From contig CAXXWQ010000004.1 in NCBI GenBank assembly GCA_963674945.2, positions 128,001 to 192,000 on the forward strand: a stretch of DNA of 64,000 nucleotides, written 5' to 3'. Shown here piece after piece: positions 40,431-64,000 of the stretch. Each line of letters begins with the position of its first letter. Position 1 is the first letter of the stretch. The DNA is from an uncultured Desulfosarcina sp. (GTDB lineage: Bacteria; Desulfobacterota; Desulfobacteria; Desulfobacterales; Desulfosarcinaceae). The notes beneath the pieces are model-generated. The model worked only from the letters and a program-made list of their open reading frames with translations. It was not told the origin of the DNA and did not search any database. The position numbers and the translations under genes are program-made.

Positions 40431-40432
40431 GT

Positions 40433-41881: not shown

Positions 41882-41952
41882 ATATCGCCCTCCGTCGAAG
41901 GATAGGATCGAAATGGATGAATCGGAACAGCCAATTAACTTCGGATAAGATT

Positions 41953-42181: not shown

Positions 42182-42231
42182 GCCGGCCATGGCCACCCGG
42201 TATACGGTAAGTACGGGTGCCTGTGGCCGGC
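42182..42231 (-). terminator. GC-rich stem-loop downstream of flgE
   Basis: GCCGGCCA...CACCCG / CGGGTG...TGGCCGGC imperfect inverted repeat about 110 nt after the flgE stop. Confidence 0.5.
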
Positions 42232-42339
42232 GTAGGGAATACTGAGGGAGTTTTTCGTTCCATTTCCCCGACGTATAGGGAACTTCTCAATCAAAACAAT
42301 GTAAGAGTTTTTTAAGGGTGACCGATCATGCCGTCATGC

Positions 42340-43662: not shown

Positions 43663-43697
43663 GGTTTTTCTCCTTTCCTGACAAAAATAAAAATAAA

Positions 43698-44384: not shown

Positions 44385-44473
44385 GATTTTCTCCTATCAG
44401 TCATCGATTGATTCTTTATCAATCCTTATTATTGGGCTTTGCCATTGCTCCTGCCGTTGCTTTTGCCAGTGGA

Positions 44474-47400: not shown

Positions 47401-47539
47401 TCGATTTTCCGTCCCTTGGGAAAGAATCGAAATCTTTCTTTTGGCGCCAGGGCAGGCGGTTGTTTTTCCCCGACGCTTTGCCATCTGCAATTGTATCGGG
47501 ATTGGCAAGATTTTGAAGAAATCCTTGTAATGGTATCAT
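44474..47539 (-). CDS. fliK: Hook-length control protein (unusually long, 1021 aa)
   Basis: Long low-complexity S/T/E/P/K-rich N-terminus and a C-terminal Flg_hook domain (QIQLKPEFLGNV...LKAELHNQGL); between fliJ and flgD. Confidence 0.88.
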   Translation of the reverse strand: MIPLQGFLQNLANPDTIADGKASGKNNRLPWRQKKDFDSFPRDGKSSEFHDSIRKLMGYDVTGRSAAHSDPDFRGNEFGPDLPTFNQLKRMVSEQLDPPSETPDEITTLFVPAQTGKEASITQQFESQQNDSCSSKKPRWESIEKLKADAVVDTTLPDGIESAIRDISTEMPVPSANGPDTDAHTTDEKPYSEPVTGAPLEDEKNGGSVLSDSTPFDDTPGNKPRLVAVPAFGSQSPIEETTKPITPADTESPIVAETQKIQNFSTRGMAFGDAKNSSFISNSEDMKRDVVLESQSKITSTGKESGAARNASLDDSPSLEKRTAMQQEILGERTNSASAVLENGLDTEFPSLKDGSISKSPDQKTGIPNKAAGVVPESPLKNLISKTATGHDNNAGGENRSTQQLATDSSSTGAKNQVPERLSKNLVAETVQGNEYRGGGESQSLRPPVASQFIEVTDPVAEDTSKTMVSKGSSGVENRTAVAPGAFRTIGSTLSQGGFRSGSAVSPVTSKGESDLKAVEAKVVENTESTVPFSSSWRTKAAEDTARSTLNQVSASDDGLDTVLPMGKGEKPEITEEAKNTESAIQGEEHEKMKASSRAVLLDDSEDTKAQTKNDGREHQLDGKTRSFRLAPNHIDSRDGKTDPNLAGDTTSTSNLTEKAPQRGMKTVDSFSFQPIESKNGKTETGQTPSSPNQEAAALQSSRPAADPSAILRRFDGGQSFQAATETVSAFATKTRFEKERIDIAGDQPVEETGANEKGFREPVVVQATKIIRNTEFSENPVGSPKGDFADKMKGTTPAPPQEEIVVREENQRQAEHLSDNMKSNGPDPARLHTAHDEVAKPAPTTANTGGTSTGHAAASNPRPFMPGSAYQSSVMDQVVRHTVVRSLKGRSEVQIQLKPEFLGNVRMNIATEKDQIMVRIVTDSAAVKETIDSHLHQLKAELHNQGLTIDKFEVTVHSEADHHSGHEQSSQMQRNTTSHNGRQAGDGQQTDSEGRGRGKHARDEHPKRNPHRRNGISHFA

Positions 47540-47551
47540 CTGCCGATCCTG

Positions 47552-47995
47552 CTATTCGATAGTTTTTCTGACAAACTGGTTGATGGCAATTTCATCGATG
47601 AATTTCGTTTCCTGCGCCAGCATCGATTTCCGGTAGCGTTCGAGCCCCTGCTCTTTCAATTTCTCCAAAATTTTCCGTTTTTTTACGGCTTCTATCATTT
47701 CTTTTTGTACCGTTGATACCTGTGCCTCTATCTTTTCGGCCTCTCTTGCCTGTTCGACGATTCGTTCGGAGAGGACTTTCAAGTATTGGTGATAGGCGAC
47801 CACCTGTGCACTGGAAAGTCCGTTTGCCTGCTCCTCGGCCAGCGTCTGGTTTGTTATCATCTCTTTTCGTTTCATCGCATCTAACCGCTCCAGGGCTGAA
47901 AGTAGTTTCGTCTTAATTTCGGCAAGTCGCTTTTTCAGATCGTCTTCGAGAAATTTTCGATGATCCAGGACCGGCTGTAGTTTAAACTGATACAT
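47552..47995 (-). CDS. fliJ: Flagellar export protein FliJ
   Basis: MYQFKLQPVL...LEKLKE...IDEIA. Confidence 0.92.
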   Translation of the reverse strand: MYQFKLQPVLDHRKFLEDDLKKRLAEIKTKLLSALERLDAMKRKEMITNQTLAEEQANGLSSAQVVAYHQYLKVLSERIVEQAREAEKIEAQVSTVQKEMIEAVKKRKILEKLKEQGLERYRKSMLAQETKFIDEIAINQFVRKTIE

Positions 47996-48062
47996 GGTAC
48001 GATCACTTCCTGCTATTTACCATCGTGAAATCCAACCGGTGTCTCATCGTGACTTTTCTATA

Positions 48063-48078
48063 AACAAATTACATGCCA
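48063..48078 (-). promoter_or_regulatory. Putative sigma54 promoter of fliJ-fliK-flgD-flgE
   Basis: TGGCAT-GTAAT-TTGTT in the 228-bp fliI-fliJ gap (the -12 box has GT instead of GC). Confidence 0.6.
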
Positions 48079-48223
48079 CAATTTTAAAATCATTGTTTTG
48101 CCTGATCTACCCTGCTTTTCGATCGATTCTGGCGGGTCTTGCCGCTCCATACGGCCCGCATTGTGGGCAATTATTTCCGGCGATGGATGATTTTTCCTCT
48201 CTTCTATGGCTACGGTGCGACAC

Positions 48224-49543
48224 TCATCCCATCATGGATGTCATTTCATCGACACTGGATTCAAAAGTAACCGACTCGCTTATGCCCTGTCGAAGAAAGC
48301 GATTAATGGGTTCGATCATCTCGATGGCCTGGTCGATCTTCGGATTGCTGCCCGCCGCATAGGCACCGATGTTGATGAGGTCTTCTGCTTTGCGGTAGGT
48401 GGCCATTAACTCTTTGATCCTGCCCGCGTTGAGCTTGTGTTCGAGATCGGTGATGTCTTCCATCACACGACTGATGCTTCTAAGGACGTCGATGGCAGGA
48501 TAGTGATTTTGGTTGGCCAGGTCCCTGGTGAGAACGATATGACCATCCAATATGGATCGTACCGTATCGGCAATGGGTTCATTCATATCGTCGCCTTCCA
48601 CAAGGACGGTGTACAAGCCGGTAATGGTACCCCGATGGGAAGAGGTACCTGCCCGTTCCAGCAATTTGGGCAACATGGAAAATACGGACGGGGTGTACCC
48701 CTTGGTAGTCGGTGGTTCCCCCAAGGAGAGACCGATCTCCCGTTGAGCCATGGCCAATCGCGTCACCGAATCCATCATCAGATTCACGTGTTTTCCCTGG
48801 TCACGGAAATATTCAGCAATGGCAGTGGCGATAAAACCGCCGCGCAATCGGACCAATGGAAGATGGTCGGAAGTGGCGACGACCACCACTGACTTTTTCA
48901 GTCCTTCCTCTCCGAGATCTTTCTGGATGAACTCATTGAGTTCCCTACCCCGCTCGCCGATAAGGGCAATGACATTCACCTCGGCAGAGGTGTATCGAGC
49001 GATCATTCCCAACAATACGCTCTTCCCGACGCCTGATCCGGCGAAGATGCCCATGCGTTGCCCACACCCCACGGTGAGTAATCCATTGATGGCACGAATG
49101 CCGAGATCCAATGGCTGCTCGATTCGATTCCGCAATAACGGATTTACCGGATTCGCATAGATGGGATACGCATCTTCGTCAACAATGGGTCCTTTCCCAT
49201 CGATTGGATTTCCAAGCCCGTCGATAACCCGTCCCAAGAGTCCCGGCCCAACTCCTACCTGGGCTTTCTCTTTTCGTGCAACCACCTTGCATCCAGGACC
49301 GAGACTACGTATATCCTCCAATGGCATCAGCAGAACTGCGTCTTCCTTGAACCCCAAGACTTCTGCACTGACCCCGCGGTTTCCGCCCTCGGTCAGGATA
49401 TCGCAAACGGCTCCGATTTGTGATGCCGGTCCGGTGGCTTCGATTACCATTCCGACGACCTTCTGGATGCGACCGCTGGCCCGAATGGGAACGCTGGCAT
49501 CCACGGCATCGATGTATTTATCCAAAAAGAAAGATTGGAGCAT
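48224..49543 (-). CDS. fliI: Flagellar export ATPase
   Basis: [31 protein letters not shown]. Confidence 0.97.
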
Positions 49544-49641
49544 CGTATTGGTCTTGTTTCATTATCGAATCGGTTCGAGATTTCATGTCGGCACAAACGG
49601 TCCTGTCAAGTGGAAAGGTTGTCACTTGTCACCATTGACTG

Positions 49642-50352
49642 TTATGAGGCTGGCGTCTTCGGCAGTTGGGCATCGAGCATCTCTTCAATGACTTTCATCT
49701 GTTGATCGATTCTGGCATCCACATCCCCGAGTTTGGTCTCGATGATACACCCCCCGCGTAAAATCGCATCATCGGCTTCGATTTTAAGAAAGGCGGCCAT
49801 ATCATCACCTGACACCAGATCTCCCTGGAATTCTTTCACCGTTTCCACATCTTCGGGATGCAGCCGCAATGTTATTTGGCGCTGATCGGACACCTTTTCC
49901 ATGGCCAGCTTGACCACCTGGCGGATGACCTTGCCATTTTCAGCCTCCTGCCCGATGATTCGTTTTGTGATTGCCAATGCCAACCGGACGGTTTCAATCT
50001 CCATCAGTTCCACGTCCCGTTGCCGTACTCTCTTCATCTCCTCGACCACCGTTGTCAGGGCAATTGTTGCCTGATGGACTTTTTCCCGATGCGAAGCGAT
50101 GACCTCATTGCGTCCTTTATCCACACCTTCATTGAAGGCCGCTTGAATTGCCTGTTCATCCATTTTCGGCGCATGGGAGTCTTCGACGGGAGGTGATGGC
50201 GCCTTTTCATTTCGCGCGGCCCCTTGCGTAAACATTTCAGAATTGCCGGATACGCTTGAGGCCTTTTTTGTATCGCAGGAAATTTCCGGGAAAAGATACA
50301 GCTCGCAGGAATTTTTAGATTGCTGAAGATTATTTTTTTGTGAATCAGCCAA
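49642..50352 (-). CDS. fliH: Flagellar assembly protein
   Basis: AFNEG...G, LRLHPED, GGCIIET...DARI. Confidence 0.9.
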   Translation of the reverse strand: MADSQKNNLQQSKNSCELYLFPEISCDTKKASSVSGNSEMFTQGAARNEKAPSPPVEDSHAPKMDEQAIQAAFNEGVDKGRNEVIASHREKVHQATIALTTVVEEMKRVRQRDVELMEIETVRLALAITKRIIGQEAENGKVIRQVVKLAMEKVSDQRQITLRLHPEDVETVKEFQGDLVSGDDMAAFLKIEADDAILRGGCIIETKLGDVDARIDQQMKVIEEMLDAQLPKTPAS

Positions 50353-51313
50353 CGAATTCCTCCCCTCCCCTTCCGCTAATCACCAATTCACCTTTTCTTT
50401 CCATATCCTGAATGATTTTTGTTATCTTGCGCTGCGCATCGGCCACTTCTTTGATCCGAACGGCACCTGACACTTCCATCTCTTCTTTCAGTATCTCGCT
50501 TGCCCGCTCAGACATGTTTCTGAATATCTTCTCTTTTACGTCGTCTGCAGATGCCTTAAGAGCAACAGCCAGCTCCTGGGACTCCACGCTGCGAAGTACC
50601 TTTTGCAGCCCTCTATCATCAACGAGTATGATGTCATCGAAAACGAACATGTTCTGACGGATCTCTTCGGCCAGGTCCGGATCCTCTTCCTCAATATCTT
50701 CGATGATCTGCTCCGTCGTTGTCCCGTCGATCATATTCAGTATTTCCGCGAGGCGAGGTACACCGCCGGCCTTTTCGACGGTGGACGTTTCATTTTTCGA
50801 TAGGATCTCTTCAAATACATGGTCGATCTCTTCCAACATGCCGGAAGATACGTTATCCAGATTGGCGATTCGCCAAGCGACATCGGACTTCAATTCGTCC
50901 GGGAGAAGCGTCATCACATCGCTCGCATGCTGCGGCTCAAGATGGGCAAGAATCAAGGATATTGTCTGGGGATGCTCATTTTGAATATGCTGGATAAGCT
51001 TATCGGGAGCAATGGATTGAATGGATTTTAATTTCTTATCCTTCAGATCATCTAAAATGTCGTCGGGGATGCCGTCACCCTTGCTCTCGCTTTTATTCTC
51101 GATTTGCTTTGGCGGTGTTGCTTTTTCCAAAAACTCCTTGGCAACACTCTCGACCAATGCCGGCGATATTTCCCCGAGCCTGGATGAGAGCTTGAAAATT
51201 AAATTTCGCTCCGATCGATTGAGTTGGCTCATCACCGGACTTAGGACATCCCATCCCAAGGCATGTACGAGTATAGCCGCCTTTAACGATCCGATAAGAT
51301 TTTGTGGGTCCAT
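50345..51313 (-). CDS. fliG: Rotor/switch protein
   Basis: KAAIL, EHPQTI, MFVFDDI, NMSERA. Confidence 0.96.
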   Translation of the reverse strand: MDPQNLIGSLKAAILVHALGWDVLSPVMSQLNRSERNLIFKLSSRLGEISPALVESVAKEFLEKATPPKQIENKSESKGDGIPDDILDDLKDKKLKSIQSIAPDKLIQHIQNEHPQTISLILAHLEPQHASDVMTLLPDELKSDVAWRIANLDNVSSGMLEEIDHVFEEILSKNETSTVEKAGGVPRLAEILNMIDGTTTEQIIEDIEEEDPDLAEEIRQNMFVFDDIILVDDRGLQKVLRSVESQELAVALKASADDVKEKIFRNMSERASEILKEEMEVSGAVRIKEVADAQRKITKIIQDMERKGELVISGRGGEEFVG

Positions 51314-51373
51314 GGTTTTCTATTTTTCTATGGCGCCGTATTCCAATGGGCACATTACATCGCCTGTGTTTCT

Positions 51374-52969
51374 TCAGGTCTCTTGAAGCCAGGACTTCAT
51401 CAGTTTGGTTGAACCGGTATTATTATCGGTGATCAGATTTTTCAGTTGTCCCGTGTAGCTATTCTCGTCTTCCGCCTGAGCATAACGTCGTTCTAACTCC
51501 TTGATCGTTTGGGGAAGCTGTTCTATCATCTGAATTTCCTCCATGGGAGTAGATGTGAGCCATCTTGCCAACGGTTTTACGACCATAAAGTAAGACAGAA
51601 GAATAAATAATCCCGCCGCACCATATTTTATCAATGTCTGGTTGTTGCGGATCATCTCCATCCAGGCAATCGCCTTGGGTTCTTCTTCCAACTCAGGCAT
51701 CACGTCCACCTGGAAGGGAATGTTTACCACTTCGATCCTATCACCGCGGGACTCATCATAATCGACGGCACTTTTCACGATATTTTCAAGTTTTGCCATT
51801 TCCACTTCGCTTCGGGGAACATATGTGGCTTGATCCGATTCGGCGCCCTCCTCCGGTGGCTTATAGGTACCGTCGACGACCACGGCAACCGACAATCGCT
51901 GGATACTTCCCACCGGCATAATCTGCCGATTGACCATTTTTCCTACTTCATAATTTTTCGTAAATTGCTGTTTCTGGCTGCTTATCCCATCTTGTGTCTC
52001 AGATGTCGTCGTTCCTGGAACGACATTTGATTGAAGACCGGGAATACCGGCGACGCGATCAGAATCATTTGCAATTGAATTAGAACTCTGCTCGCTTCGA
52101 ATGACAGAGTTTTCCGGAAGGTAGAGTTCCTCTGTTTTTTCCTGCTGTGTAAAGTTGAGAAGACAGGACACCCGGACGATGGCCTTATCCATTCCAAGAA
52201 CGCTTTCCAGCATTGTTTTGACCCTGTTCTCCAAAAGTCTCTCTTTTTTCTCTTGGAAGGCGAGCTGGTTGGATGTGATCTGTTGGATACCATTTTCTTC
52301 TTTCATACCGGCAAGCATCTTCCCGGTATCATCGACAATGGTTACATCTTCCGGTTGAAGCCGGGAAACACTCGATGAGATCAGGTGCACGATACCCTGG
52401 ATCTGCTCCTTACTAAGATATCTACCTCTTCTCAACTTCAGGATTACAGAGGCGGTGGCGGGTTCTTCCTCCTCGATGAATAAGGATTTAGCAGGCATGA
52501 CGATGTGAACACGTGAACTCTCCACTTCCATCAACGTGTTGATGGTCCGGCTCAATTCGCCTTGAAGCGCGCGTTGATAGTTGACGTTCTGAACAAACTC
52601 GGTCATCCCCAATTTTGCATCATCAAACACCTCGAAGCCGATTCCCGTTCCGCGGGGCAAACCCTCGGAGGCCAATTGTAAGCGCGTCTCGTAAATTTTC
52701 TCATAGGGTATGAGTACGCCTTTCCCATCCATTGTTAGCTTGTATGGAATCTGATTTTCCTTAAGCTTTGTTACGATTTCGGCGGCATCTTCCGGTGCCA
52801 AATTGCTGTATAAGGGATGAAGATCGTCGGTTCCCGACCAAGTCAGAAAATATACCATTCCAGCAATGGTCCCACCGACCAAAATGGCCATGGTCACCAA
52901 TTTGCCTGTAGAGAGGCCCCTTATTGCCAACTTTGCTTGCTGCGGAAACATTGCTAGAGAAAAAGCCAT
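51374..52969 (-). CDS. fliF: MS-ring protein
   Basis: GFEVFD...NYQRALQGELSRTI, ASVIL, RLSVAVVV, two TMs. Confidence 0.96.
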   Translation of the reverse strand: MAFSLAMFPQQAKLAIRGLSTGKLVTMAILVGGTIAGMVYFLTWSGTDDLHPLYSNLAPEDAAEIVTKLKENQIPYKLTMDGKGVLIPYEKIYETRLQLASEGLPRGTGIGFEVFDDAKLGMTEFVQNVNYQRALQGELSRTINTLMEVESSRVHIVMPAKSLFIEEEEPATASVILKLRRGRYLSKEQIQGIVHLISSSVSRLQPEDVTIVDDTGKMLAGMKEENGIQQITSNQLAFQEKKERLLENRVKTMLESVLGMDKAIVRVSCLLNFTQQEKTEELYLPENSVIRSEQSSNSIANDSDRVAGIPGLQSNVVPGTTTSETQDGISSQKQQFTKNYEVGKMVNRQIMPVGSIQRLSVAVVVDGTYKPPEEGAESDQATYVPRSEVEMAKLENIVKSAVDYDESRGDRIEVVNIPFQVDVMPELEEEPKAIAWMEMIRNNQTLIKYGAAGLFILLSYFMVVKPLARWLTSTPMEEIQMIEQLPQTIKELERRYAQAEDENSYTGQLKNLITDNNTGSTKLMKSWLQET

Positions 52970-52990
52970 TTCGACTCCTTACCCTTTATT

Positions 52991-53293
52991 CTATATGGAC
53001 ATCTTACGAATTTCATCATAAGCGGAAACGAGTTTATTTCTAACCTGCATCACCAATTCGAAGGAAACTTCGGCTTTTTGCATGGCAATCATGGTGCCGT
53101 GAATGTCCTTGTTCCTTCCAGTGGTCAGGTCCTCGATGGCCTGGTCCGCATCAACAAGTTCTCGATTAACCTCTTTCAACGACTGTTTCATATAGTCGCC
53201 GAAGGATTCTTTGGGCTGTTCCATTTGCCCCTTCTCAGGTGCATTCAAGGAAGGGAAGACAGTTTGTAGGTTAGATATTGTCAGATCGTTCAT
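52991..53293 (-). CDS. fliE: Hook-basal body protein
   Basis: MIAMQKA...QVRNKLVSAYDEI. Confidence 0.95.
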   Translation of the reverse strand: MNDLTISNLQTVFPSLNAPEKGQMEQPKESFGDYMKQSLKEVNRELVDADQAIEDLTTGRNKDIHGTMIAMQKAEVSFELVMQVRNKLVSAYDEIRKMSI

Positions 53294-53730
53294 GAATTCC
53301 TTCCTATATCCAGGGCCATACCGGCCATGTCCTTGGTAGCCCGTATGGCAGTTGTATTGGCTTCGAAACTTCTGCTTGCCGAAATCATGTTCACCATCTC
53401 TTCGATGATATTGACATTCGGCAATTGGATGAACCCGTTCTCATCCGCATCGGGATGGCCCGGATCATATTTTTCCACGAAAGGTTTTTCGTCTTCGATA
53501 ATCCGCGAAATCTTAACGCCACCGGCCTGTGCATCCAGTTGCGATTGTAACTCTTCCTGAAAATTTGGGGTTGAGACCGCTTCGAAGATCACGTCCTTGC
53601 GTTTGTATGGCTCCCCGGTTTCCGTTTTTGTCGTGTTCACATTGGCCATGTTGCTGGAAATCAGGTTCATTCTGAGCCGCTGTGCGGCAAGACCCGTCGA
53701 ACTAATGGATAGGCTGTCGAAAAAATTCAT
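53290..53730 (-). CDS. flgC: Proximal rod protein
   Basis: YDPGHPDA...PNVN...EMVNMISASRSFEAN. Confidence 0.97.
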   Translation of the reverse strand: MNFFDSLSISSTGLAAQRLRMNLISSNMANVNTTKTETGEPYKRKDVIFEAVSTPNFQEELQSQLDAQAGGVKISRIIEDEKPFVEKYDPGHPDADENGFIQLPNVNIIEEMVNMISASRSFEANTTAIRATKDMAGMALDIGRNS

Positions 53731-53731
53731 T

Positions 53732-54163
53732 TTACGGCTTCCCTTCGGCCAGAGCCTTTTTCAGCCCCTTGAATTTCGATGAAATAATCTGGGCCGATGC
53801 TTTGTACAGCAGGCTGTTTTTGGCAAGCTCGGCCATCTCTTCATCGATGTTTACCCCATTTTTATCTCCCCGAATGAGCAATGCATCGTCCGCAGTCGTT
53901 CTTGCATGCTTTTTCGCATCATCTACTGAACTTTGTGTTCCGGGAAGGTGTTGATCGTCCGTTTGCCGTAATGTCGTGTCAGGAGGCAGGGACGAATTTT
54001 GTTGAAGTGCCTGTTCAACATTTAAAGCAAAGGGCTTGTAATTGGGTGTATCGGCATTGGCAACATTGTTCAGAATCATCTCGTGGTTTCGGGCACGCAA
54101 ATCCATCGAACGGGACAAGACGGCGATGGTGCCACCAAATAAATCTACTGGATTGTTTCCCAT
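53732..54163 (-). CDS. flgB: Proximal rod protein
   Basis: NNVANADTPNYK and NGVNIDEEMA. Confidence 0.95.
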   Translation of the reverse strand: MGNNPVDLFGGTIAVLSRSMDLRARNHEMILNNVANADTPNYKPFALNVEQALQQNSSLPPDTTLRQTDDQHLPGTQSSVDDAKKHARTTADDALLIRGDKNGVNIDEEMAELAKNSLLYKASAQIISSKFKGLKKALAEGKP

Positions 54164-54202
54164 GGTAAACCCCTTGTCATTGCATTTGTTATCGTTTCGT
54201 TG

Positions 54203-54218
54203 AGCAAGTTATGTACCA
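54203..54218 (-). promoter_or_regulatory. Sigma54 promoter of the flgB operon
   Basis: TGGTAC-ATAAC-TTGCT; GTCAA-N4-TTGTC box at 54304-54317. Confidence 0.8.
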
Positions 54219-54315
54219 CTCTTCCAGCAACAATTTAACAACCTGTTATTTTAGGATATTTTTTTTGTCTCGCTTTTCTTCTCATTCTTCAACCGGTAAA
54301 ACCGTCAATGTCTTG

Positions 54316-55743
54316 TCATCGTTCTTCGGTTGCCGTCTCATTTCGGTATTCGTTCAGTTTGTTCCGAAGGGTGCGTATGCTGATTCCCAGCATTTTGGCG
54401 GCATGGGTGCGGTTGTCATCGACCTTGTTCAACGTGTCGAAAATCAATTTCTTTTCCATCTCTCGAACGGTCAATCCCGTTGTTAACGGATCCATGGCGT
54501 CTGCAGGTGCATCCGCATAATCCAAAAGAAGGTGGCCGGGTTGTAGCTCTGGACCGTCACCGATCAAGACCCCACGTTCCATGGTATTTTCCAGCTCACG
54601 GACGTTTCCAGGCCATGTCCGCTCCGAAAGTTTGGCCATGGCTGCCGCAGAAATCCTTTTCATGGGAATCTTGTTTTTGCCGGTGAAACGACGGAAAAAA
54701 TGCTCGGCAAGCAACGGAATGTCGCCTTTTCGTTCACGTAGTGGTGGAATCGTCAAAGGAATGACATTGAGCCGATAGTAGAGATCTTCCCGGAAATCTC
54801 CCATCGTTACGGCTTTTCTCAAATCACGATTGCTAATGGCAATAATCCGGGTATCGATTGGGATGGAGGCGTTTCCTCCTATCCGAACGATCTCTTTTTC
54901 CTGTAAGGCACGTAGCAATTTGGCTTGCAGCGGCAATGCCATCTCCGTGACCTCATCGAGCACCAGTGTTCCGTTGTGAGCGATTTCAAATTTGCCGATC
55001 TTTCTGGAAACAGCCCCCGTAAAAGCGCCTTTTTCGTGCCCGAACAACTCGCTTTCGGCCAGATGGTCCGGCAGGGCTGCGCAATTCACCGCTACATAGG
55101 CGTTCTTTTCCCGGCCACTGCAACTGTGAATAAATAGTGCCAGGAGTTCCTTGCCGGTTCCACTTTCACCGGTCACCATGACCGTCGCCGTACTCGATGC
55201 GACTTTCTTGGCAATCTCGAGCAAGTGCAAAAGCGCATGGTCCTGCGTGATAAAGGATTTTTCATCACCGGAAGGGTATGCACCGGATGCGTTGCCGTTG
55301 ACGCTTTTTTTTGCGGCCCTTGCAAATGCCTGTTCGACCAATTCGGAACATGTAATATCAATAATGTAATCGGTTGCCCCCGCTTGCATGGCCTCTATTA
55401 CATCGTGGGCAGAGCAGTGACCCGATCCCATCATCGCATATACCGACGACGATGCCTGCTTGATCTGCCCGATCAGATCCACGCCAGGCATGTCCTCCAG
55501 TATCTGGTCCGTGTACATGATTTGAAACGATTGTTTTCGTGCCAGTTCCCATGCTTCTTTACCGCTGTGGCAGAAAACACATTGAAAAGTATTGGTTTTT
55601 GACAGGATCTTGGCCATATGCGTTTGCATTTGTTGGCCATTGACCGCCAATAATACAGAAAGTTTTCTCTCTTCGTCCATTCGCCGCTGGTTTTCTGGGT
55701 TCATCGTATATCGGAAAAACCTTGCCTGCTCTGTCATCCGCAA
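54316..55743 (-). CDS. Sigma54-dependent activator (FleR/FlrC-like) with an atypical receiver domain
   Basis: GESGTGKE, ESELFGHEKGAFTGA, WPGNVRELEN and Fis-HTH LGISIRTLRNKL. Start uncertain (55737/55704/55680). Confidence 0.9.
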   Translation of the reverse strand: MRMTEQARFFRYTMNPENQRRMDEERKLSVLLAVNGQQMQTHMAKILSKTNTFQCVFCHSGKEAWELARKQSFQIMYTDQILEDMPGVDLIGQIKQASSSVYAMMGSGHCSAHDVIEAMQAGATDYIIDITCSELVEQAFARAAKKSVNGNASGAYPSGDEKSFITQDHALLHLLEIAKKVASSTATVMVTGESGTGKELLALFIHSCSGREKNAYVAVNCAALPDHLAESELFGHEKGAFTGAVSRKIGKFEIAHNGTLVLDEVTEMALPLQAKLLRALQEKEIVRIGGNASIPIDTRIIAISNRDLRKAVTMGDFREDLYYRLNVIPLTIPPLRERKGDIPLLAEHFFRRFTGKNKIPMKRISAAAMAKLSERTWPGNVRELENTMERGVLIGDGPELQPGHLLLDYADAPADAMDPLTTGLTVREMEKKLIFDTLNKVDDNRTHAAKMLGISIRTLRNKLNEYRNETATEER

Positions 55744-55804
55744 GTGAGACTCACCATTTAAAAATATGGCCGACGCCCGACCTGGACGCCGCGTAAATAC
55801 TTAT

Positions 55805-55820
55805 AGCAAATATGTTGCCA
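55805..55820 (-). promoter_or_regulatory. Sigma54 promoter of the FleR/FlrC-like gene
   Basis: TGGCAA-CATAT-TTGCT; GTCA-N6-TGAC box at 55974-55987. Confidence 0.75.
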
Positions 55821-55934
55821 TACATTCTTGTGGAGGGAATTGAATGGGATAGTTTTATGATATAATTGAATAACTATTTAATATAAAAGCTTTTTAATAG
55901 TTTGTGGGTAAGGTGTGAGATTGGTGGCATACGC

Positions 55935-55959
55935 TTGCAGGCGGGCAACCCGCCTGCAA
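55935..55959. terminator. 11-bp stem hairpin downstream of the FleQ-like gene
   Basis: TTGCAGGCGGG-CAA-CCCGCCTGCAA; no U-tract on the minus strand. Confidence 0.45.
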
Positions 55960-56056
55960 AAGGCAGAAGTGGCGTCATGGGATTGACAGAACAAAAATTG
56001 GTGAAGAAGCGGGCCAAAGGAAGGACAGGGGATCGTTTAGCCTGTATGTCTCCCCT

Positions 56057-57103
56057 CTATGCGCATTGTTGAAGTTCGTACCGTTTGATTTTTTCCACAA
56101 GGGTAGTGCGTTTCACTTGAAGCAGCTTGGCGGCCTGGTTTTTTACCCATTTGGTCTTTTCGAGAGATTGATAGATCAATCGTTTTTCAAATTCACTCAC
56201 TGCCGTATTCAGACAAAGCCCATCACCCGTGATTTCGGGAATCGGCATGCAGGAATTCGGCGCTTGGGCTTTCATCTTAACCGGCAGGTCGTCGACGTCG
56301 AGTTCGCCCTCTCCTTTAATCACCACCAATCGCTCCATGAGATTGGAGAGTTCCCTGACATTTCCGGGCCAATCGTGGTGCATGAGAACGTTGATTGCCG
56401 CATCGGAAATAGAATCGACATGGGTATTGAGACGATGGTTCAGTGTTTTCAAAAAATGAGAAACAAAGTGTGGAATATCCAAGTTGCGCTCGCGCAATGC
56501 GGGAAGTTTTATTGGAATCACATAGAGCCGATAAAACAGATCTTCACGAAAGTTGCCTTTTTGCACCTCCTCTTCCAGATCACGATGGGTGGCTGCGACG
56601 ATACGCACATCGACGGTAACGGTCTTGCAACTGCCAACGGGTTCGAAGCAGCGTTCTTCCAAAACCTTCAGGATCTTGACCTGGAGATCCGGGCTCATAT
56701 CTCCGATTTCATCCAAAAATATCGTTCCACCGTTGGCTGCTTCGAACTTGCCGACTTTGTTTGCCGTAGCACCGGTAAACGCACCTTTCAGATGTCCGAA
56801 GAGTTCACTCTCCAGAAGGTTTTCGGGAATGGCACCGCAATTGATGGAGACAAAGGGTTGGTCTCGGCGGTAAGACTGCTTGTGGATGGCATGGGCGATC
56901 ATCCCTTTTCCGGTTCCGGTCTCACCATTTATTAAAATGGTACTGTCGCTGTCCGCCACCCGCTCGATCAGACGAAAGATTTTTTTCATCTGTTGGCTTT
57001 CGCCGACAATTCCTCTGAAAGCGTCGATCTCCTTTGCCTCCATCGGGTTACCGTCCACAATATCTTCCCTGACATCACCGTCAATTTTTGCAAATGCTTG
57101 CAC
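56057..57103 (-). CDS. Sigma54-dependent activator (FleQ/FlrA-like), AAA+ and HTH only
   Basis: GETGTGK, NCGAIPENLLESELFGHLKGAFTGA and the HTH KRTTLVEKIKRY resembling FleQ; no N-terminal sensor. GTG start follows AAGGAGG. Confidence 0.88.
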   Translation of the reverse strand: MQAFAKIDGDVREDIVDGNPMEAKEIDAFRGIVGESQQMKKIFRLIERVADSDSTILINGETGTGKGMIAHAIHKQSYRRDQPFVSINCGAIPENLLESELFGHLKGAFTGATANKVGKFEAANGGTIFLDEIGDMSPDLQVKILKVLEERCFEPVGSCKTVTVDVRIVAATHRDLEEEVQKGNFREDLFYRLYVIPIKLPALRERNLDIPHFVSHFLKTLNHRLNTHVDSISDAAINVLMHHDWPGNVRELSNLMERLVVIKGEGELDVDDLPVKMKAQAPNSCMPIPEITGDGLCLNTAVSEFEKRLIYQSLEKTKWVKNQAAKLLQVKRTTLVEKIKRYELQQCA

Positions 57104-57734: not shown

Positions 57735-57761
57735 TAAAGAAAAAATCCCATAGATCGATAA
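57735..57761 (+). promoter_or_regulatory. Sigma28 promoter of flagellin
   Basis: TAAAGAAA-N11-ATCGATAA, about 120 nt upstream of the ATG. Confidence 0.75.
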
Positions 57762-57879
57762 TAGGGTTGTACGGCGCAAATACAAAATGAAAGGGGGCGT
57801 TGATCAATCCGAAGTACCAGGCGCCATCCAAAACAAATGGCAAGAATGCCAACACTACACCTAGAAAAGGAGAAAGACC

Positions 57880-58704
57880 ATGAGTATCGCATTAACCGCA
57901 GGAATGAGAGCAAATCTTCTGAGCTTGCAGAACACCTCCCAAATGATGGAGAACACCCAGAAGAAACTTTCCACCGGTAAAAAAGTCAACACCGCCCTGG
58001 ATGATCCAGTCAATTTCTTCAAAGCAAAAGACCATAATGACCGTGCAGATGATTTGTCTGCCAAGAAAGATGGTATGAAGGAAGCGATTCAGACCATTGA
58101 GGCGGCAAACACGGGTATCGAGTCCATTTATGATCTGCTGGACCAGATGAAATCTCTTGCCCAGGCCGCAAAAACTTCTGAGAATACGACTGACCTGGAA
58201 GGACAGTTCAACACAATCCGAAGTCAAATCGCCGACCTGGCAGCAGATTCGAATTACGGCGGGAAAAATTTACTGGAAGGCGACGACCTGGCAGTCGAAT
58301 TCGACGAAAGCGCAACGCACAAACTGACCGTTTCCGGTTTTAATGCCAACAATGCCGGTACGATCGTAACCTCTGGCTCTTCTCCACAGACGATTATTAT
58401 CGCTGCTGCCGACTTTTCCGGTGCAACAGGGGTCGAAAGTGCCGTTGCGGAAATTGACAGTGCCGTCACCGCGATGCGCACCGAAGCACAAAAGCTTGCC
58501 TCAAACCTGTCCACCATCTCCATTCGCGAAGATTTCACGGACAACATGATTACCACATTGAACACCGGTGCCGATAACCTGACACTGGCGGATATGAATG
58601 AAGAAGGTGCCAATATGCTGATGCTGCAGACAAGGCAGCAGCTGGGTACCACTTCCTTGTCCATGTCCTCCCAGGCGGCCCAAGCTGTATTAGGGTTGTT
58701 CTAA
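57880..58704 (+). CDS. fliC: Flagellin (short, alphaproteobacterial type)
   Basis: LTAGMRANLLSLQNT...LSTGKKVNTALDDPVNFF N-terminus and LTLADMNEEGANMLMLQTRQQL...VLGLF C-terminus. Confidence 0.93.
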   Translation: MSIALTAGMRANLLSLQNTSQMMENTQKKLSTGKKVNTALDDPVNFFKAKDHNDRADDLSAKKDGMKEAIQTIEAANTGIESIYDLLDQMKSLAQAAKTSENTTDLEGQFNTIRSQIADLAADSNYGGKNLLEGDDLAVEFDESATHKLTVSGFNANNAGTIVTSGSSPQTIIIAAADFSGATGVESAVAEIDSAVTAMRTEAQKLASNLSTISIREDFTDNMITTLNTGADNLTLADMNEEGANMLMLQTRQQLGTTSLSMSSQAAQAVLGLF

Positions 58705-58755
58705 TAATCTTCCACGTTGACAGCAAGTCTCGATGATGCATTAGATGACAGATGA

Positions 58756-58785
58756 CCGGAGGGGAAATTTCCCCTCCGGCTCTTT
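58756..58785 (+). terminator. Intrinsic terminator after flagellin
   Basis: Perfect palindrome CCGGAGGGGAAATTTCCCCTCCGG followed by CTCTTT. Confidence 0.7.
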
Positions 58786-58865
58786 CATCAAACAATATTT
58801 CGATTAAATAAAAATTTGCGCCCTATCCCATTTCAATTGCAAAGCAAGATGCAAGGGATCGTTCC

Positions 58866-59282
58866 ATGTCACTAAAAATTTCATTAAAACCAAATGAGAG
58901 AATCATTATCGGTGGAGCGGTTGTCACCAATGGTAACAGTCGTTGCGATCTGAGTTTTGAAAACAAGGTTCCTTTGCTGCGGGAAAAGGATATTTTGAGT
59001 GAGTCGATGGCCAATACGCCGGCTCGTCGGATCTACTTTGTGATCCAACTCATGTATATCGATGAGGGAAATCTGGCGATTCATCATCAGACGTACTGGA
59101 ACCTGGTAAAACCCTTCCTCGAAGCCGTCCCCAGCGCCCTGCCATTGATCGATCAAATCAACGATTCGATTTTGAAGAACCAATATTACGCAGGACTGAA
59201 GACTGCCAAAAAATTGATTGAATATGAACAGGAGATCATCGCACGTGTATCGAAACCCACTAAAGGCGTATCAAAGTGTTGA
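58866..59282 (+). CDS. flbT: Flagellin post-transcriptional regulator FlbT
   Basis: MSLKISLKPNERIIIGGAVVTNG...LLREKDIL...ANTPARRIYFVIQLMY...YYAGLK...LIEYE. Confidence 0.92.
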   Translation: MSLKISLKPNERIIIGGAVVTNGNSRCDLSFENKVPLLREKDILSESMANTPARRIYFVIQLMYIDEGNLAIHHQTYWNLVKPFLEAVPSALPLIDQINDSILKNQYYAGLKTAKKLIEYEQEIIARVSKPTKGVSKC

Positions 59283-59625
59283 ACAGCAGACCGCGACCGG
59301 CCGAAAAATGGAAGCCCGGGTGCTCACGCAAGCCGCGCACAAACTGAAACATTGCCAGGAAAACTGGGATGCCGCTGATCGGAAAGAGCGGCTGGATGAA
59401 GCCATCAGCTACAACCAACGAGTATGGAGCATTATCCAGGCAGAGTTGCTAGACGAAGAGAACCCGATGCCGAAAGAGCTAAGAAAAAATATTTTATTGC
59501 TAAGTGCGTTTATCGACAAACGAATTTTCAATGTATTGGCCTATCCCGACCCGGAAAAACTGACCATCATTATCAATATAAATCTCAATATCGCAGCCGG
59601 ATTACATGATGATCCAGGAGAATAG
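59245..59625 (+). CDS. flaF: Flagellar biosynthesis regulator FlaF
   Basis: AY...R..EA.VL..AA...L.EA..YNQRVWS...ENPMPKELRKNI..L..FI...LIININLNIAAGL. GTG 59245 follows an AGGAG RBS. Confidence 0.9.
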   Translation: MYRNPLKAYQSVEQQTATGRKMEARVLTQAAHKLKHCQENWDAADRKERLDEAISYNQRVWSIIQAELLDEENPMPKELRKNILLLSAFIDKRIFNVLAYPDPEKLTIIININLNIAAGLHDDPGE

Positions 59626-59781: not shown

Positions 59782-61809
59782 TCAAGTCTTTGAAGAAACG
59801 TTCATCAATCCCAATGCAGCCTCTTTTTTTCCAGTCGCCTCCAGCGCCCTTGCATGCTGTTGGACAAATTCACGGCTGTTATACCCCATCTTCACGATCT
59901 CGTTCAAATATTGTAAACCGATTTCATTTTGTCCTGAGAGACAATATGCCACACCCAAAGTTCCGAGGGCCATGGGATGATCAGGATATCGAGTCAAAAA
60001 CGTCTCAAGGATTTTTTTGGCATTGTTAACATTTCCCATCCGCATTTCGCATAGGGACAGATTCAAGAAAGCTTCCTTTAAATCAGGATCGAGTTCTATC
60101 GCTTTTTGCGAAACTCTTTTCCCCTGTTTATACTTTCCCAATTGAATATACGCATAACCTAAATTAAAAAAACCCTTTGCATAATCAGATTTTTTGCTTA
60201 AAACCGTTTTCCATAAGTGGACGGCGTTTTCATAATCTCCGACTTCACCCGCCTGGATTGCATGCTCTATAACACTATACAGATTATTTTCGTTTATCGT
60301 TAATTTTTCATGACCCAATTGGTAATATGCACTCTTTTTCTGTGAACGATTTTCATCCAGTTCACCAAAATGATGAACTGGGACAGCCCCCAAAACCATC
60401 TTAACACCTTCTTTTTCCAGACTCTTTTCCACTTTTTCATGCAGACGATTTTCAAACCGGATCGACGGCTTATTCGGAAACAATCTCACTTTTACGCTGG
60501 GGTACCACCCTTTTCCTTTTTCTTCAGGATAATGTCCTTTGTTCGCCTGCCATCCCTCTACCCCCACCTCGTCCACGTAATTTCGGGTGATAAAGGAATA
60601 AGCGACGTTCTGATCAGTTCCTTGTTTCACCATTTCCTTTATTTTCCGATGGTCCGATAAAGAGATTTGTTCGTCGGCGTCTAAAATGAAAACCCATCGT
60701 CCTTTGGCCTTGTTTAAAGATTTATTTCTTGCATCGGCAAAATTGTTGTTCCAGGAAAAATCAAAGATTTTTGCTCCGAAAACAGTGGCAATATCTTTGC
60801 TATTGTCCGTAGACCCGGTATCGACAATGATGATTTCATCAACCAGTCCTCTGACGCTATAGAGGACCTTGGCAATCCGCTCTTCTTCATTTTTAACGAT
60901 CATGCATAAAGAAATCTGAGGCTCTTTATTGGATAATTCCTCTTTAAGAGAGTTGAGTTTTTGTTTTATCATCAAGGCTGGATTTAAAATACCATCGGAG
61001 GCTCCAAAATTAGCAATGACGCGTTGAATGGCTGACAGGGCTTCAGTATATTTCTTTTGTTGAACGAGAATATCAATATATAAATAATTCAGCTTCTTAG
61101 AATTCGGAAATGAATGAAGCGCCTGCCTAAATCGTTTTTCAGCATTTATGTAATCACCGAGTTCTGAAATGACTGAATGGTATGTCTCTGATACCTTAGG
61201 ATTACAGGAAGATTTTATAAATCCCTCTTCTATAAGTGCTAAGCCCTCTTGAACATCTCCATCTTCAATCTTTAGTAGTCCTTTATTCAAATAAGCGGGT
61301 CCGTACCCGGAATCTAATTGAATCGCTTGTTCAAAGAGTAATGCCGCCTTTTCTAATTTATTTTTGTTGTAAGCAAGCACACCGGAAGAATTTGTAAATA
61401 CAGGCGACTCTAAACCAAAAGACATAATTATTGATAGCTCATCTTCTAGTTCCGTAAATTTTTTAGCTCTTTCCAATGCAATAACCATTAGTTCGAATGT
61501 ACGAATGCACCATTCCGAATCATCAATCTTTTCCAATACATCGATTGCTTCGCTAAATTGCTCAGCTTCGATTAAAATACTACCAAGTCTCTCACGAAAT
61601 ATATTAATTGATGGATATTGAATAATTGCCCTTGCTAATAACCTAGTACCTTTAACAAAATCTTCCTTTAGTTGGTATTCAAATGCTGAATTTATAATCT
61701 CATTAACCATATCTTGATTGGTAAAAGTGATACTTTCGTTTCCACAATCATCTGTTCGATAATTATTTGATCTTTTTTCAAAATCTGATTTTTTATATTT
61801 TGTTTTCAT
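59782..61809 (-). CDS. TPR-GT2-TPR glycosyltransferase (probable flagellin glycosylation)
   Basis: ISLCMIVKNEE, VDTGSTD, FADARN, ILDADE, RLF...HE, flanked by TPR repeats. Confidence 0.9.
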   Translation of the reverse strand: MKTKYKKSDFEKRSNNYRTDDCGNESITFTNQDMVNEIINSAFEYQLKEDFVKGTRLLARAIIQYPSINIFRERLGSILIEAEQFSEAIDVLEKIDDSEWCIRTFELMVIALERAKKFTELEDELSIIMSFGLESPVFTNSSGVLAYNKNKLEKAALLFEQAIQLDSGYGPAYLNKGLLKIEDGDVQEGLALIEEGFIKSSCNPKVSETYHSVISELGDYINAEKRFRQALHSFPNSKKLNYLYIDILVQQKKYTEALSAIQRVIANFGASDGILNPALMIKQKLNSLKEELSNKEPQISLCMIVKNEEERIAKVLYSVRGLVDEIIIVDTGSTDNSKDIATVFGAKIFDFSWNNNFADARNKSLNKAKGRWVFILDADEQISLSDHRKIKEMVKQGTDQNVAYSFITRNYVDEVGVEGWQANKGHYPEEKGKGWYPSVKVRLFPNKPSIRFENRLHEKVEKSLEKEGVKMVLGAVPVHHFGELDENRSQKKSAYYQLGHEKLTINENNLYSVIEHAIQAGEVGDYENAVHLWKTVLSKKSDYAKGFFNLGYAYIQLGKYKQGKRVSQKAIELDPDLKEAFLNLSLCEMRMGNVNNAKKILETFLTRYPDHPMALGTLGVAYCLSGQNEIGLQYLNEIVKMGYNSREFVQQHARALEATGKKEAALGLMNVSSKT

Positions 61810-61836
61810 TTTATTATTCTATATAGAAGACTATTT

Positions 61837-62466
61837 TTACCACCATTTAAACTTTTCCGTTAACTTTTTATAGTTTTCGATATCTTTTGAGAAAGAATGT
61901 TTGATATAACTTAGTTCATCACGTGTTACTATTCTTCTGTTTGAATAAAGTTTATTGATCACTTTCATATTTGTATGTTGTAGGCGACCTTTTAAAAAAA
62001 TATTTAATCTACTTACACTTTCTTCCATTCTATCCTGAAAGCCTACAAAATCATATAAATCCAAATTATCTCCAAGCATTATGCTCGCGGTATTTCTTCC
62101 TCTTTCCTTAATATATTTTTCTATTGGATATCCGGAATAGTAACGAAATTTCTTTTTAATACTTTTATTAGTAACATCATAGTGATAATGAGAAATGAAT
62201 CTTTCCACCGGTTCTCTTAACCAAGTAACGAACTTCCAACCTTCATTTTTCAAATGTTCATACTTTGCAATTGGAAAGTGGCCAATGATAAAATTATAAT
62301 CTTTGTAGTTATTTGGGTAGACGAAAACAGGAAAACTTTCCATATCATAAAACTTGAAATTATGATGATAATAATCTTCCAATAACTCATCTTTATAATT
62401 TCTTTTCAGCATTTCTCTTAATGCAGTTCCAGCCGTTTTATAAATGTGTAGAAAAACAATTTTCAT
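61837..62466 (-). CDS. Sulfotransferase family 2-like protein
   Basis: FLHIYKTAGT (5'-PSB-like) and WLREPVERFISHY (3'-PB-like). Confidence 0.8.
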   Translation of the reverse strand: MKIVFLHIYKTAGTALREMLKRNYKDELLEDYYHHNFKFYDMESFPVFVYPNNYKDYNFIIGHFPIAKYEHLKNEGWKFVTWLREPVERFISHYHYDVTNKSIKKKFRYYSGYPIEKYIKERGRNTASIMLGDNLDLYDFVGFQDRMEESVSRLNIFLKGRLQHTNMKVINKLYSNRRIVTRDELSYIKHSFSKDIENYKKLTEKFKWW

Positions 62467-62505
62467 TTTACACCTAAACTGAGAATTTCGCTGAATAATA
62501 GATAA

Positions 62506-63999
62506 TCAAAGAAGCATCCTTTCTCGAAGAGATCTTAATTTTTTCCTATATTTTTCATTTTGCACATAGTTAAATGAATTTTGAAATACAATATCGTTAT
62601 CAGGGTTACATTGAACAGCTTTAAGTAGGTATTTTTCGCATTCTGGATGTTTACCGATTCTCTTTGCCAAAACTCCGAGAAGACACATCAAATCTGAATT
62701 TATATCGAAATTTCGTATTGCCGTAATTACTTTATCACCCGCTCTTTCAATTTTATAATCATCTATTAATTTTTTTATTTCATTGACCGTATTATTATAA
62801 GATTCAATTGTAATCCCTACATTATTTTTATATTTTTCATCTAAATAATAAAAACCTGAATTATTTAAGAGCCTAAATATGAACTTTTCTCTTCCAAGAT
62901 TTAAGCAGCAACGCAAAACAAGTCGAAAAATCGGCTCATTCATGTTTCTTCTTGATATCTTTAATAAATATCGTAAGGCATTATGATAATCGTGATATTT
63001 AAGAAAGATTTGTCCGACTCTTTTATGAAACTCATCATTCAGATCATTTTTAGAGACTTTTTTCAAATCAGGAAAAATAACTTCCGGATCCCACTTTTCG
63101 ATAATCTTTCTAACGATCTTCGACTCATATGAATATTCCATACACTCAGAAAAAGAAGCGTTGTCATCATGCCACCTGTAACGACAAACTACCATATCTG
63201 CTTTATAAGGCACTAACCGAGAAGAAGCTCTTACCCAAAAATCGTAATCCTCCGCTCTTTCAAATTCAACATCATATTCTCCAACCTCCTGATATAGCTC
63301 TTTTTTTACCAAACTACAAGGATTTGGAATCTTACAACCTGTTATCAAATGTCCGATTAAACTTCCATTGACCTTTGAAAAATCCAATGGATCAAAAAAG
63401 TCAACTTCAATATTTTTCGTATTTCCGAAATATCGTAACTTTCCATAAATCAAGTTGATATTTGGTATCATATCAATGATTTTATGATATTCTTCGACAA
63501 TCATTGGTTCCATTACATCATCATCATCAAGCCAAAGAATATACTTCCCTTTTGCCTCCAAAATTCCACGATTCCGTGCTTCTGGCCTGCCTAAATTGAC
63601 AGAGTTCTTTATATATCTGATTGTATTTTCTCTAAAATTATTTACAACTTCTCTTGTATCGTCAGTCGAGCCATCATCTACAACGATAATTTCCGTAGCT
63701 GGAAATGTCTGATTTATTGCACTGGATAGCGATTCGGCTAAGAAATGACTTCGATTGTAGGTTGTGATTACAATACTAATGATTGGAGCATTGTCTGTTA
63801 CTGAAATATGGTTTTCAACAGGCGAAATGAAATATATTGGTACCTCCTGATGGCAACTCTTTATATCCGATTTTTCATAGTTGTCTATATCAATTCTATA
63901 TCCTTGTTCGAACTTTTCTGAAAGAAACTCAATATTGTAGGAAATTTTCGATCCACTTCTATTACTCCAGGATGTTTGTACAATATTAATTGGATTGCA
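62506..63999 (-). CDS. GT2 glycosyltransferase with a C-terminal TPR-like region (5'-truncated by window)
   Basis: Frame is open to the window edge. ISIVITTYNR, IIVVDDGSTD, ARNRG, WLDDDD, AEDYDFW; longer than the ORF track's TTG start at 63561. Confidence 0.88.
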   Translation of the reverse strand, partial: CNPINIVQTSWSNRSGSKISYNIEFLSEKFEQGYRIDIDNYEKSDIKSCHQEVPIYFISPVENHISVTDNAPIISIVITTYNRSHFLAESLSSAINQTFPATEIIVVDDGSTDDTREVVNNFRENTIRYIKNSVNLGRPEARNRGILEAKGKYILWLDDDDVMEPMIVEEYHKIIDMIPNINLIYGKLRYFGNTKNIEVDFFDPLDFSKVNGSLIGHLITGCKIPNPCSLVKKELYQEVGEYDVEFERAEDYDFWVRASSRLVPYKADMVVCRYRWHDDNASFSECMEYSYESKIVRKIIEKWDPEVIFPDLKKVSKNDLNDEFHKRVGQIFLKYHDYHNALRYLLKISRRNMNEPIFRLVLRCCLNLGREKFIFRLLNNSGFYYLDEKYKNNVGITIESYNNTVNEIKKLIDDYKIERAGDKVITAIRNFDINSDLMCLLGVLAKRIGKHPECEKYLLKAVQCNPDNDIVFQNSFNYVQNEKYRKKLRSLRERMLL

Positions 64000-64000
64000 G

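Follow-up and report, generated by a model that had tools for sequence, protein, structure and literature searches.

How does a flagellin of the alphaproteobacterial polar type, followed by flbT and flaF, come to stand beside a flagellar cluster that is otherwise native to Desulfobacterota? The question is raised by a 64,000-nucleotide (nt) stretch of the genome of an uncultured Desulfosarcina sp. (GCA_963674945.2, contig CAXXWQ010000004.1, positions 128,001 to 192,000; the whole of it is called the window here), for which an original prediction had proposed a chimeric system with an alphaproteobacterial filament module. Our reading, to which we give a probability of about 0.72 for the whole explanation including the mechanistic steps set out below, is that flagellin-flbT-flaF is an alternative filament cassette that replaces fliC-fliD-fliS and csrA-fliW on the native Desulfobacterota basal body, and that each of its parts likely does the job of its counterpart in the displaced module. 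The cassette genes stand on the forward strand, divergent from a complete flagellar cluster. They comprise a PRK12688-like (alphaproteobacterial polar type) flagellin of minimal size (274 amino acids [aa]; 57880..58704), flbT (58866..59282; PF07378, E 3e-43) and flaF (59245..59625 from a likely GTG start at 59245, the open reading frame [ORF] being called from 59218; PF07309, E 3e-33). Both profile matches are over cut-off, so the predicted succession of flagellin, flbT and flaF holds; the 5' part of flaF overlaps the 3' end of flbT. The flagellin termini read as first reported, the best NCBIfam matches of the protein are PRK12688 and PRK14708, both below their cut-offs, and its best PDB matches are Caulobacter FljK/L/M/N (E 1e-20).

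The original prediction noted that fliD, fliS, csrA and fliW are absent from the cluster, and this absence extends to the whole genome (7.08 Mb in four contigs, 98.7% complete, 5.7% contamination), where a profile search gave no match over cut-off to FliD_C, FliS, FliW or CsrA and positive controls for all four worked. A FliD_C match below cut-off (E 0.009 over 57 of 236 positions) and a CsrA match (E 0.27) were treated as noise. Flagellin_N matches are limited to the cassette flagellin and flgL, leaving the genome with one flagellin. The whole-genome search for FliD, FliS, FliW and canonical FliC that had been proposed as a check thus turned up no hidden canonical fliC/fliD/fliS/fliW/csrA locus.

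The same cassette is found well beyond this genome. Among 301 genomes of the phylum that were profile-searched for FlbT, FliD_C and FlgK, 24 are positive for FlbT, 145 for FliD_C (143 over cut-off) and 174 for FlgK. The 174 FlgK-positive genomes divide into 21 with FlbT only, 138 with FliD only, one with both and 14 with neither; cassette carriers thus make up about one in eight of the flagellated genomes sampled in the phylum, and the exclusion between FlbT and FliD has a Fisher p of 7e-17, which is overstated since kin are not independent. FlbT genomes fall into 10 family codes, and four of these families also contain FliD genomes. The other FlbT genomes number 23: FlgM is present in 21 of them, FliA scores over cut-off in 19, and two more have partial FliA-like matches; FliW, FliS and CsrA occur once each, all in the same genome (G260). 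Of 121 genomes searched in the phylum to which one Nitrospirota locus belongs, 8 have FlbT, and all 8 are without FliD_C. Named genomes, when scanned, gave at least 538 confirmed relatives, the best 80 of which carry titles that are mostly Desulfobacterales, Syntrophales, Geobacterales or Nitrospirota; FliD_C is lacking from five of these genomes, Desulfosarcina widdelii PP31 among them. The cassette is an old, widespread alternative in Desulfobacterota and Nitrospirota; the notion of a one-off chimera falls with its occurrence in 10 Desulfobacterota families and in a second phylum, while the proposed replacement of the filament module as a unit gains support from the near mutual exclusion of FlbT and FliD/FliS/FliW/CsrA.

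The supplement of a 2026 preprint (PMC13277936; this and the other papers cited are drawn on in part) already lists this gene complement for two Desulfobacterales. In its Table S1, of which 9 of the 12 Desulfobacterota rows are covered here, some in part, Desulfatitalea tepidiphila and BuS5 have FliA, FlgM, FliC, FlbT and FlaF, as in the window, and the cells for FliD, FlaY, DUF1217, FliS and FliT are empty. The portion of its main text covered here does not discuss this complement: the string "desulfobacter" does not occur, FlaF-FlbT appears only as a co-presence link, and there is no operator, paralog or swap analysis. Among the papers listed in our literature search, none discusses FlbT/FlaF in Desulfobacterota.

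The arrangement varies among carriers. The cassette lies immediately 3' of flgKL in some loci, and in two of them (L048 and L053, from genomes G099 and G028) flbT-flaF directly follows flgL with the flagellin genes 7–9 kb off; G099 has three flagellin copies, and the leader motif described below precedes two or more of them. A second flaF-like ORF stands 3' of flaF in L120, L123, L133, L137 and L138, mostly Syntrophales-titled loci. G260 (L028, L163, L202) is the sole sampled genome with both modules; it has a partial flbT at a contig end and represents either a dual system or binning contamination, given that its flbT-flaF sits on a contig of ~1.7 kb. G202 (L060), 100% complete in eight contigs, is of the FlbT type with no FlgM or FliA match, its flaF lying apart from flbT on the opposite strand, and possibly represents a sigma28-free version.

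Trees bear on how the cassette spread. In an FlhA tree (16 FlbT-type, 12 FliD-type and two alphaproteobacterial sequences), the window FlhA groups with FlhAs of its own phylum and the two types interleave, with five type changes, three of them forced by starred branches; a single FlbT-type FlhA clade is rejected by the approximately unbiased (AU) test (p-AU 5e-56), G277, for example, falling among FliD-type FlhAs. Because the types interleave, it is likely that the cassette has been exchanged repeatedly among Desulfobacterota and Nitrospirota lineages. A possible alternative to repeated exchange is an ancient coexistence of both cassettes with differential loss. One locus among those examined (L209), on the 22-kb Methylorubrum plasmid pCMU02, has a flagellin between two flbT genes with an integrase adjacent, and such genes therefore travel on mobile DNA.

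The flagellin tree (133 sequences, FlgL outgroup, with long-branch warnings) places native FliC on one side and alphaproteobacterial flagellins on the other, the FlbT-type group lying inside the latter, where it adjoins the polar flagellins of Methylobacterium, Methylorubrum, Pelagibacterium and Azospirillum (clade support 100, starred). AU tests on 50 selected rows (20 FlbT-type, 13 native, 13 alphaproteobacterial and four FlgL; quick LG+G4 trees) reject a grouping of FlbT-type flagellin with native FliC (p 4.9e-5), which upholds the view that this is not an ordinary deltaproteobacterial FliC. With no canonical locus in the genome and a flagellin outside native FliC, neither of the two outcomes named beforehand as speaking against the replacement was found. 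An alphaproteobacterial donor is only one possibility: the alphaproteobacterial flagellins fall inside or beside the FlbT-type group depending on the run, and the trees leave the direction of transfer unfixed because the alphaproteobacterial sample consists of plasmid or chromid loci (12 loci, without Caulobacter, Bradyrhizobium, Magnetospirillum or Magnetococcus). An older form of the same origin, in which an alphaproteobacterium that had a PRK12688-type polar flagellin donated the cassette once in the distant past and it then spread in Desulfobacterota and Nitrospirota, would be compatible in mechanism with the cassette described here, and we put it a little short of even odds. It draws on the starred clade, outside which the other alphaproteobacterial flagellins lie, on AU tests that reject alphaproteobacterial monophyly (p 0.013) and keep FlbT-type monophyly (p 0.31), and on the fla-flbT order that is also seen in Pelagibacterium and Azospirillum. 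Set against this are FlbT identities of 27%–38% to the best 60 of 73 plasmid-borne alphaproteobacterial matches, compared with 43%–84% within the group, as well as the run-dependent position, the long branches and the restricted alphaproteobacterial sample.

Transcription of the cassette would be under native control. The predicted sigma28-type promoter, TAAA-N15-ATCGATAA (57735..57761, +), lies 118 nt 5' of the flagellin ATG, with TAAA at 57735–38, a 15-nt spacer and ATCGATAA at 57754–61; this site presumably drives flagellin transcription, with a start near 57768. Consensus sequences for the sigma factors are those in general use. Of 81 related regions upstream of flagellin genes, 56 keep TAAA-N15-GCCGATAA with at most two mismatches, against 0–6 in 20 shuffled sets, and the promoter first read from the window is thereby confirmed as a conserved element (the 81 regions are those with a placeable start, some near-identical, and the sites are mostly 120–155 nt upstream). 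A sigma54 flagellin promoter was considered and rejected, with 0 of 81 upstream regions matching at one mismatch or fewer. Profile matches bear out the presence in the cluster of fliA (sigma28; 31134..31904, −; over the TIGR02479 cut-off), flgM (anti-sigma28; 25094..25501, −), flhF-flhG and two sigma54 activators. Scanning the genome with a sigma28 matrix, uncalibrated and judged by eye, pointed to methyl-accepting chemotaxis protein (MCP)-like, PilZ-like and motAB-linked genes. One strong sigma28-like site (11720, +) is 5' of HD-domain response regulator-motA-motB genes; another (20451, +) is 5' of a PAS-LuxR gene that is convergent on flgL, and this site scores above the flagellin's own. The convergent gene after flgL had been called unrelated; its orientation is as described, and the label is doubtful, since the score of its site suggests that the PAS-LuxR gene may have some connection with the cluster.

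A second conserved element lies just 5' of the start codon and begins with an AGAA-loop hairpin, which an A-rich stretch links to CCU-AGAAA-AGG over the Shine-Dalgarno. In the window, hairpin 1 (UGGCA-AGAA-UGCCA; 57838..57851, +) is a candidate FlbT site with covariation, and hairpin 2 (CCU-AGAAA-AGG; 57860..57872, +), in which the Shine-Dalgarno AGGAG forms the 3' arm, is a second candidate. The stem of hairpin 1 averages 5.5 pairs in 73 distinct anchored leaders of 79, compared with 4.2 ± 0.1 for permuted arms, and 28 hand-picked four-loop leaders have both-sided changes in five of six pairs. A covariance model built from the leaders gives 92 matches across 97 loci and one strong match in the genome, at the cassette; in the model-fitted alignment, 93% of cells are paired and covariation is 0.34 (0.17 shuffled, at most 0.12 slid). 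For hairpin 2, 96% of cells are paired, with a both-sided change in one of three pairs. Rfam has no match for the flagellin leader. The model matched no alphaproteobacterial leader, and by eye an AGAA hairpin is seen in 4 of 15 of these. Of 12 native fliC leaders read, 4 have GCA-AGGA-UGC and 7 a GGA loop; a hairpin with GGA in its loop is what marks a CsrA site (PMC13443453), and the AGAA loop is one letter away from the native CsrA site AGGA. It is likely, from these patterns, that the AGAA leader is the FlbT operator.

By analogy with Caulobacter, the window FlbT is predicted to be a translational repressor and FlaF a flagellin export chaperone. In that organism, FlaF serves as secretion chaperone of all six flagellins, and FlbT binds FljJ only and represses with it, export of FljJ lifting the repression (PMC7591256); the table of PMC13277936 lists FlaF as a FliS analogue and FlaY as a FliD analogue. 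The statement that FlbT and FlaF control flagellin post-transcriptionally in Caulobacter is thus right for repression by FlbT and wrong for FlaF, which as a chaperone would replace FliS and form no translation checkpoint. The two checkpoints predicted for the window accordingly stand in part: FliA/FlgM and the conserved sigma28 promoter are there, the part given to FlaF is not, and the number of layers is not special, FliD-type relatives combining FliA/FlgM with CsrA/FliW. The swap changes parts, not the number of control layers. Of the systems cited in comparison, that of Caulobacter does lack FliA/FlgM (none in the control genome) but has a FliD analogue, FlaY.

The sequence of events would then be as follows. 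Sigma54 activators, to judge from gene content, would drive the early genes along with fliA and flgM; on completion of the hook, FlgM would be exported and sigma28 would transcribe the flagellin from the conserved promoter. FlbT would likely bind the two AGAA-loop hairpins, one of them over the Shine-Dalgarno, and restrain translation while unexported flagellin builds up, the sole flagellin being the likely co-repressor, as there is no FljJ-like paralog here. FlaF would likely take flagellin to the export gate in FliS's place, as homology to the Caulobacter protein suggests, and polymerization would proceed without FliD, by self-assembly or with a further factor.

Several observations weigh against this account. 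Binding of FlbT to the hairpins is deduced from co-occurrence and position only, and shuffled sequences fold as well as the 133-nt leader taken in full (z 0.14). Control by FlbT in a single-flagellin system is an extrapolation, because FljJ is the one flagellin that FlbT binds in Caulobacter; in Brucella, FlbT has been proposed as an activator, in a 2015 review that lists its mechanism as unresolved (PMC4347634). csrA is kept near four FlbT-type loci (L102, L114, L124 and L129, three of them titled Smithella), and frames of flagellin, paralog or flaF are split in several related loci. The genome tallies include non-independent kin, and most of the genomes are fragmented. Some host families (f37, f74) also fall apart in the FlhA tree, and entire flagellar clusters may therefore move as well. 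A vestigial system, a relic cassette in non-motile cells or one without a normal filament, seems very improbable to us: broken frames occur in some related loci and no motility record was found in the literature searched for cultured carriers, yet all window genes are intact, the export, rod, hook and stator set is complete, two phyla share a conserved promoter, operator stems and gene order, and sigma28-like sites stand at MCP-like genes.

A further possibility is that the cassette is not foreign at all, FlbT and FlaF being strongly diverged CsrA and FliS, AGAA a loop variant of the native AGGA operator, and the two modules ancient alleles of one homeostat of which Alphaproteobacteria fixed one. 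Weak signals do suggest homology between FlaF and FliS and between FlbT and CsrA. Profile alignment with hhalign gives E 7e-4 for FlbT/CsrA over the first 39 columns, with the invariant R39 of FlbT on the invariant, RNA-binding R44 of CsrA, and E 0.009 for FlaF/FliS over 111 columns (cross-controls 0.35 and 0.087), although the probabilities are 27% and 5%. The sole PDB matches of the window FlaF are FliS (E 0.24 and 0.68, both weak) and its second Pfam match is FliS (E 0.028), but a FlaF profile search of the PDB found no FliS. Hidden Markov model (HMM) scores reach P<0.01 for 13 of 47 FlbT and 19 of 39 FlaF sequences, and for 0 of 47 and 0 of 39 when reversed; Pfam CsrA, however, matches 0 of 47 FlbT and Pfam FliS 3 of 39 FlaF. 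The AlphaFold model of a relative's FlbT (predicted local distance difference test [pLDDT] 93.6) begins with five strands and a short helix, the order found in CsrA, and goes on to a four-helix bundle; CsrA itself forms an intertwined dimer of five-stranded chains. Searches with FlbT gave no relative in the PDB by sequence, nothing at E≤0.001 in Foldseek with the monomer model, generic four-helix bundles and no CsrA in a VIA fold search whose rows almost exclusively cover the helical bundle, and no usable match outside its own family in Atlas; no paper on FlbT-CsrA homology appeared among those listed in the literature search. The GCA-AGGA-UGC and GGA loops of native leaders would fit such common descent. 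The nesting of FlbT-type flagellin among alphaproteobacterial flagellins and the rejected sister grouping with native FliC do not, and we regard this proposal, taken as a whole, as somewhat less probable than the ancient transfer.

If the filament is built without FliD, what caps it? A cap-less filament, as the original prediction had it, is no more than a possibility. An unrecognized capping or polymerization protein, either a FlaY-like factor encoded elsewhere or, in relatives, a protein we call paralog X, has in our estimate nearly as much chance of being right as of being wrong. Precedents exist in Caulobacter, where FlaY acts as a FliD analogue (PMC13277936; bioRxiv 2024.09.25.614892), and in Phaeobacter, which lacks FliD and where loss of CP1 leaves FliC secreted and cells without flagella (PMC11974857). 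Paralog X itself, unnamed, ~180–280 aa long and marked by the motif KNYPPFP..S.ER, occupies the position between fla and flbT at 38 of 94 loci (~40%; for example L042:9038-9880 and L066:9156-9995, with 36 others), the 94 being those of 101 examined with flagellin within 6 kb of flbT, species duplicates kept. Against an unrecognized cap, neither this genome nor 56 of the 94 loci has paralog X, which therefore is not a universal cap; a relative with an 82% identical FlbT does have it. DUF1217 gave no match over cut-off in the whole genome, in a search without positive control; the known cap FliD is absent by profile search, and FlaY was not searched for, the cited rows of PMC13277936 Table S1 listing none for the two FlbT-type Desulfobacterales. 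No other conserved unknown neighbor appeared across 21 loci, nor any candidate at 28 further sigma28-like sites inspected by eye. Four members of paralog X tested have no Pfam match; its profile matches flagellins weakly, flagellin-like termini persist in some members, and the C-terminal part is missing from many. A model (pLDDT 72) consists mainly of long helices and has an N-terminus of low confidence. We take paralog X for a degenerate flagellin paralog and guess that it acts as a secreted, FljJ-like co-repressor. A prediction of an FlbT-paralog X complex from a Nitrospirota locus returned no answer (score 0.00) and counts neither for nor against.

The alternative filament cassette can be placed among known systems. 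With Caulobacter crescentus FlbT/FljJ/FlaF (and FlaY, FlmG) it shares the FlbT and FlaF families, a related minimal flagellin, the lack of FliD and FliS, and nearby TPR (tetratricopeptide repeat)-glycosyltransferase genes; it differs in its FliA/FlgM control, its single flagellin with no FljJ-like paralog in the genome, and the order fla-flbT-flaF. With the native FliC-FliD-FliS and CsrA-FliW module, whose CsrA-FliW partner switch is characterized in Bacillus and Campylobacter, it has in common sigma28/FlgM transcription, the layout of hairpin plus Shine-Dalgarno, the GGCA/UGCC stem, and a chaperone and an RNA-binding repressor (a predicted role for FlbT) adjoining the flagellin, whereas the loop is AGAA instead of AGGA, FlbT/FlaF stand in place of CsrA/FliW/FliS, FliD is missing and the flagellin is from another clade. 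The PRK12688-type loci of Azospirillum (polar), Methylobacterium and Pelagibacterium hold the closest flagellin clade (40%–48% identity) and the fla-flbT adjacency, but in another host phylum and on another basal body; the sigma28 promoter and paralog X belong to the Desulfobacterota/Nitrospirota version. Known parts are recombined here in an uncharacterized way, into a second filament module that can be swapped and that stands under native sigma28/FlgM control. The exchangeable unit comprises filament, chaperone and translational control, with the export apparatus and sigma28 cascade staying unchanged. This one-flagellin version, with its sharply defined candidate operator, bears on filament growth without FliD and on the RNA recognized by FlbT, and it has cultured carriers (Desulfosarcina widdelii PP31, Desulfatitalea alkaliphila and D. 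tepidiphila), for which close relatives with the canonical module serve as controls.

A bolder combination, which we think unlikely, would make FlbT/FlaF deeply diverged CsrA/FliS, giving two interchangeable homologous cassettes swapped on the same basal body, with one loop letter (AGGA to AGAA) switching the regulator. The FlbT filament would lack both FliD and FlaY, being self-capped or using a third class of polymerization factor, and the degenerate secreted paralog of ~40% of loci would be an independently evolved FljJ-like checkpoint. Were this true, Desulfobacterota would supply natural matched pairs of cassettes.

The surroundings of the cassette hold further features. Between fla and flbT, a perfect 24-nt inverted repeat followed by CTCTTT (58756..58785, +; read by eye) is likely an attenuating terminator. 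Convergent with the cassette are glycosyltransferase family 2 (GT2)-TPR, sulfotransferase-like and GT2 genes (59782..64000, −), a candidate flagellin-modification island; ORFs related to these neighbors occur in 18 of 21 clustered loci. The flagellar cluster includes flgK-flgL (22126..24435, −), not followed by csrA-fliW, unlike in FliD-type relatives, and its remainder (11854..57103) holds motAB, rod, ring, hook and export genes, fliQ also being present, in addition to flhFG and the sigma54 activators. FliK is very long (1021 aa; 44474-47539, −), and FlhF (32950-34407, −) has a C-terminal Ada-type zinc-binding domain (PF02805, over cut-off). An S8 peptidase with Calx-beta and a C10 peptidase with PKD lie between motAB and the other flagellar genes (15316-20338). 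At the far end of the window (2-5689, +), a FabA-domain gene is followed by oleB/oleC/oleD-like genes, an olefin biosynthesis-like set whose NCBIfam matches are partly below cut-off.

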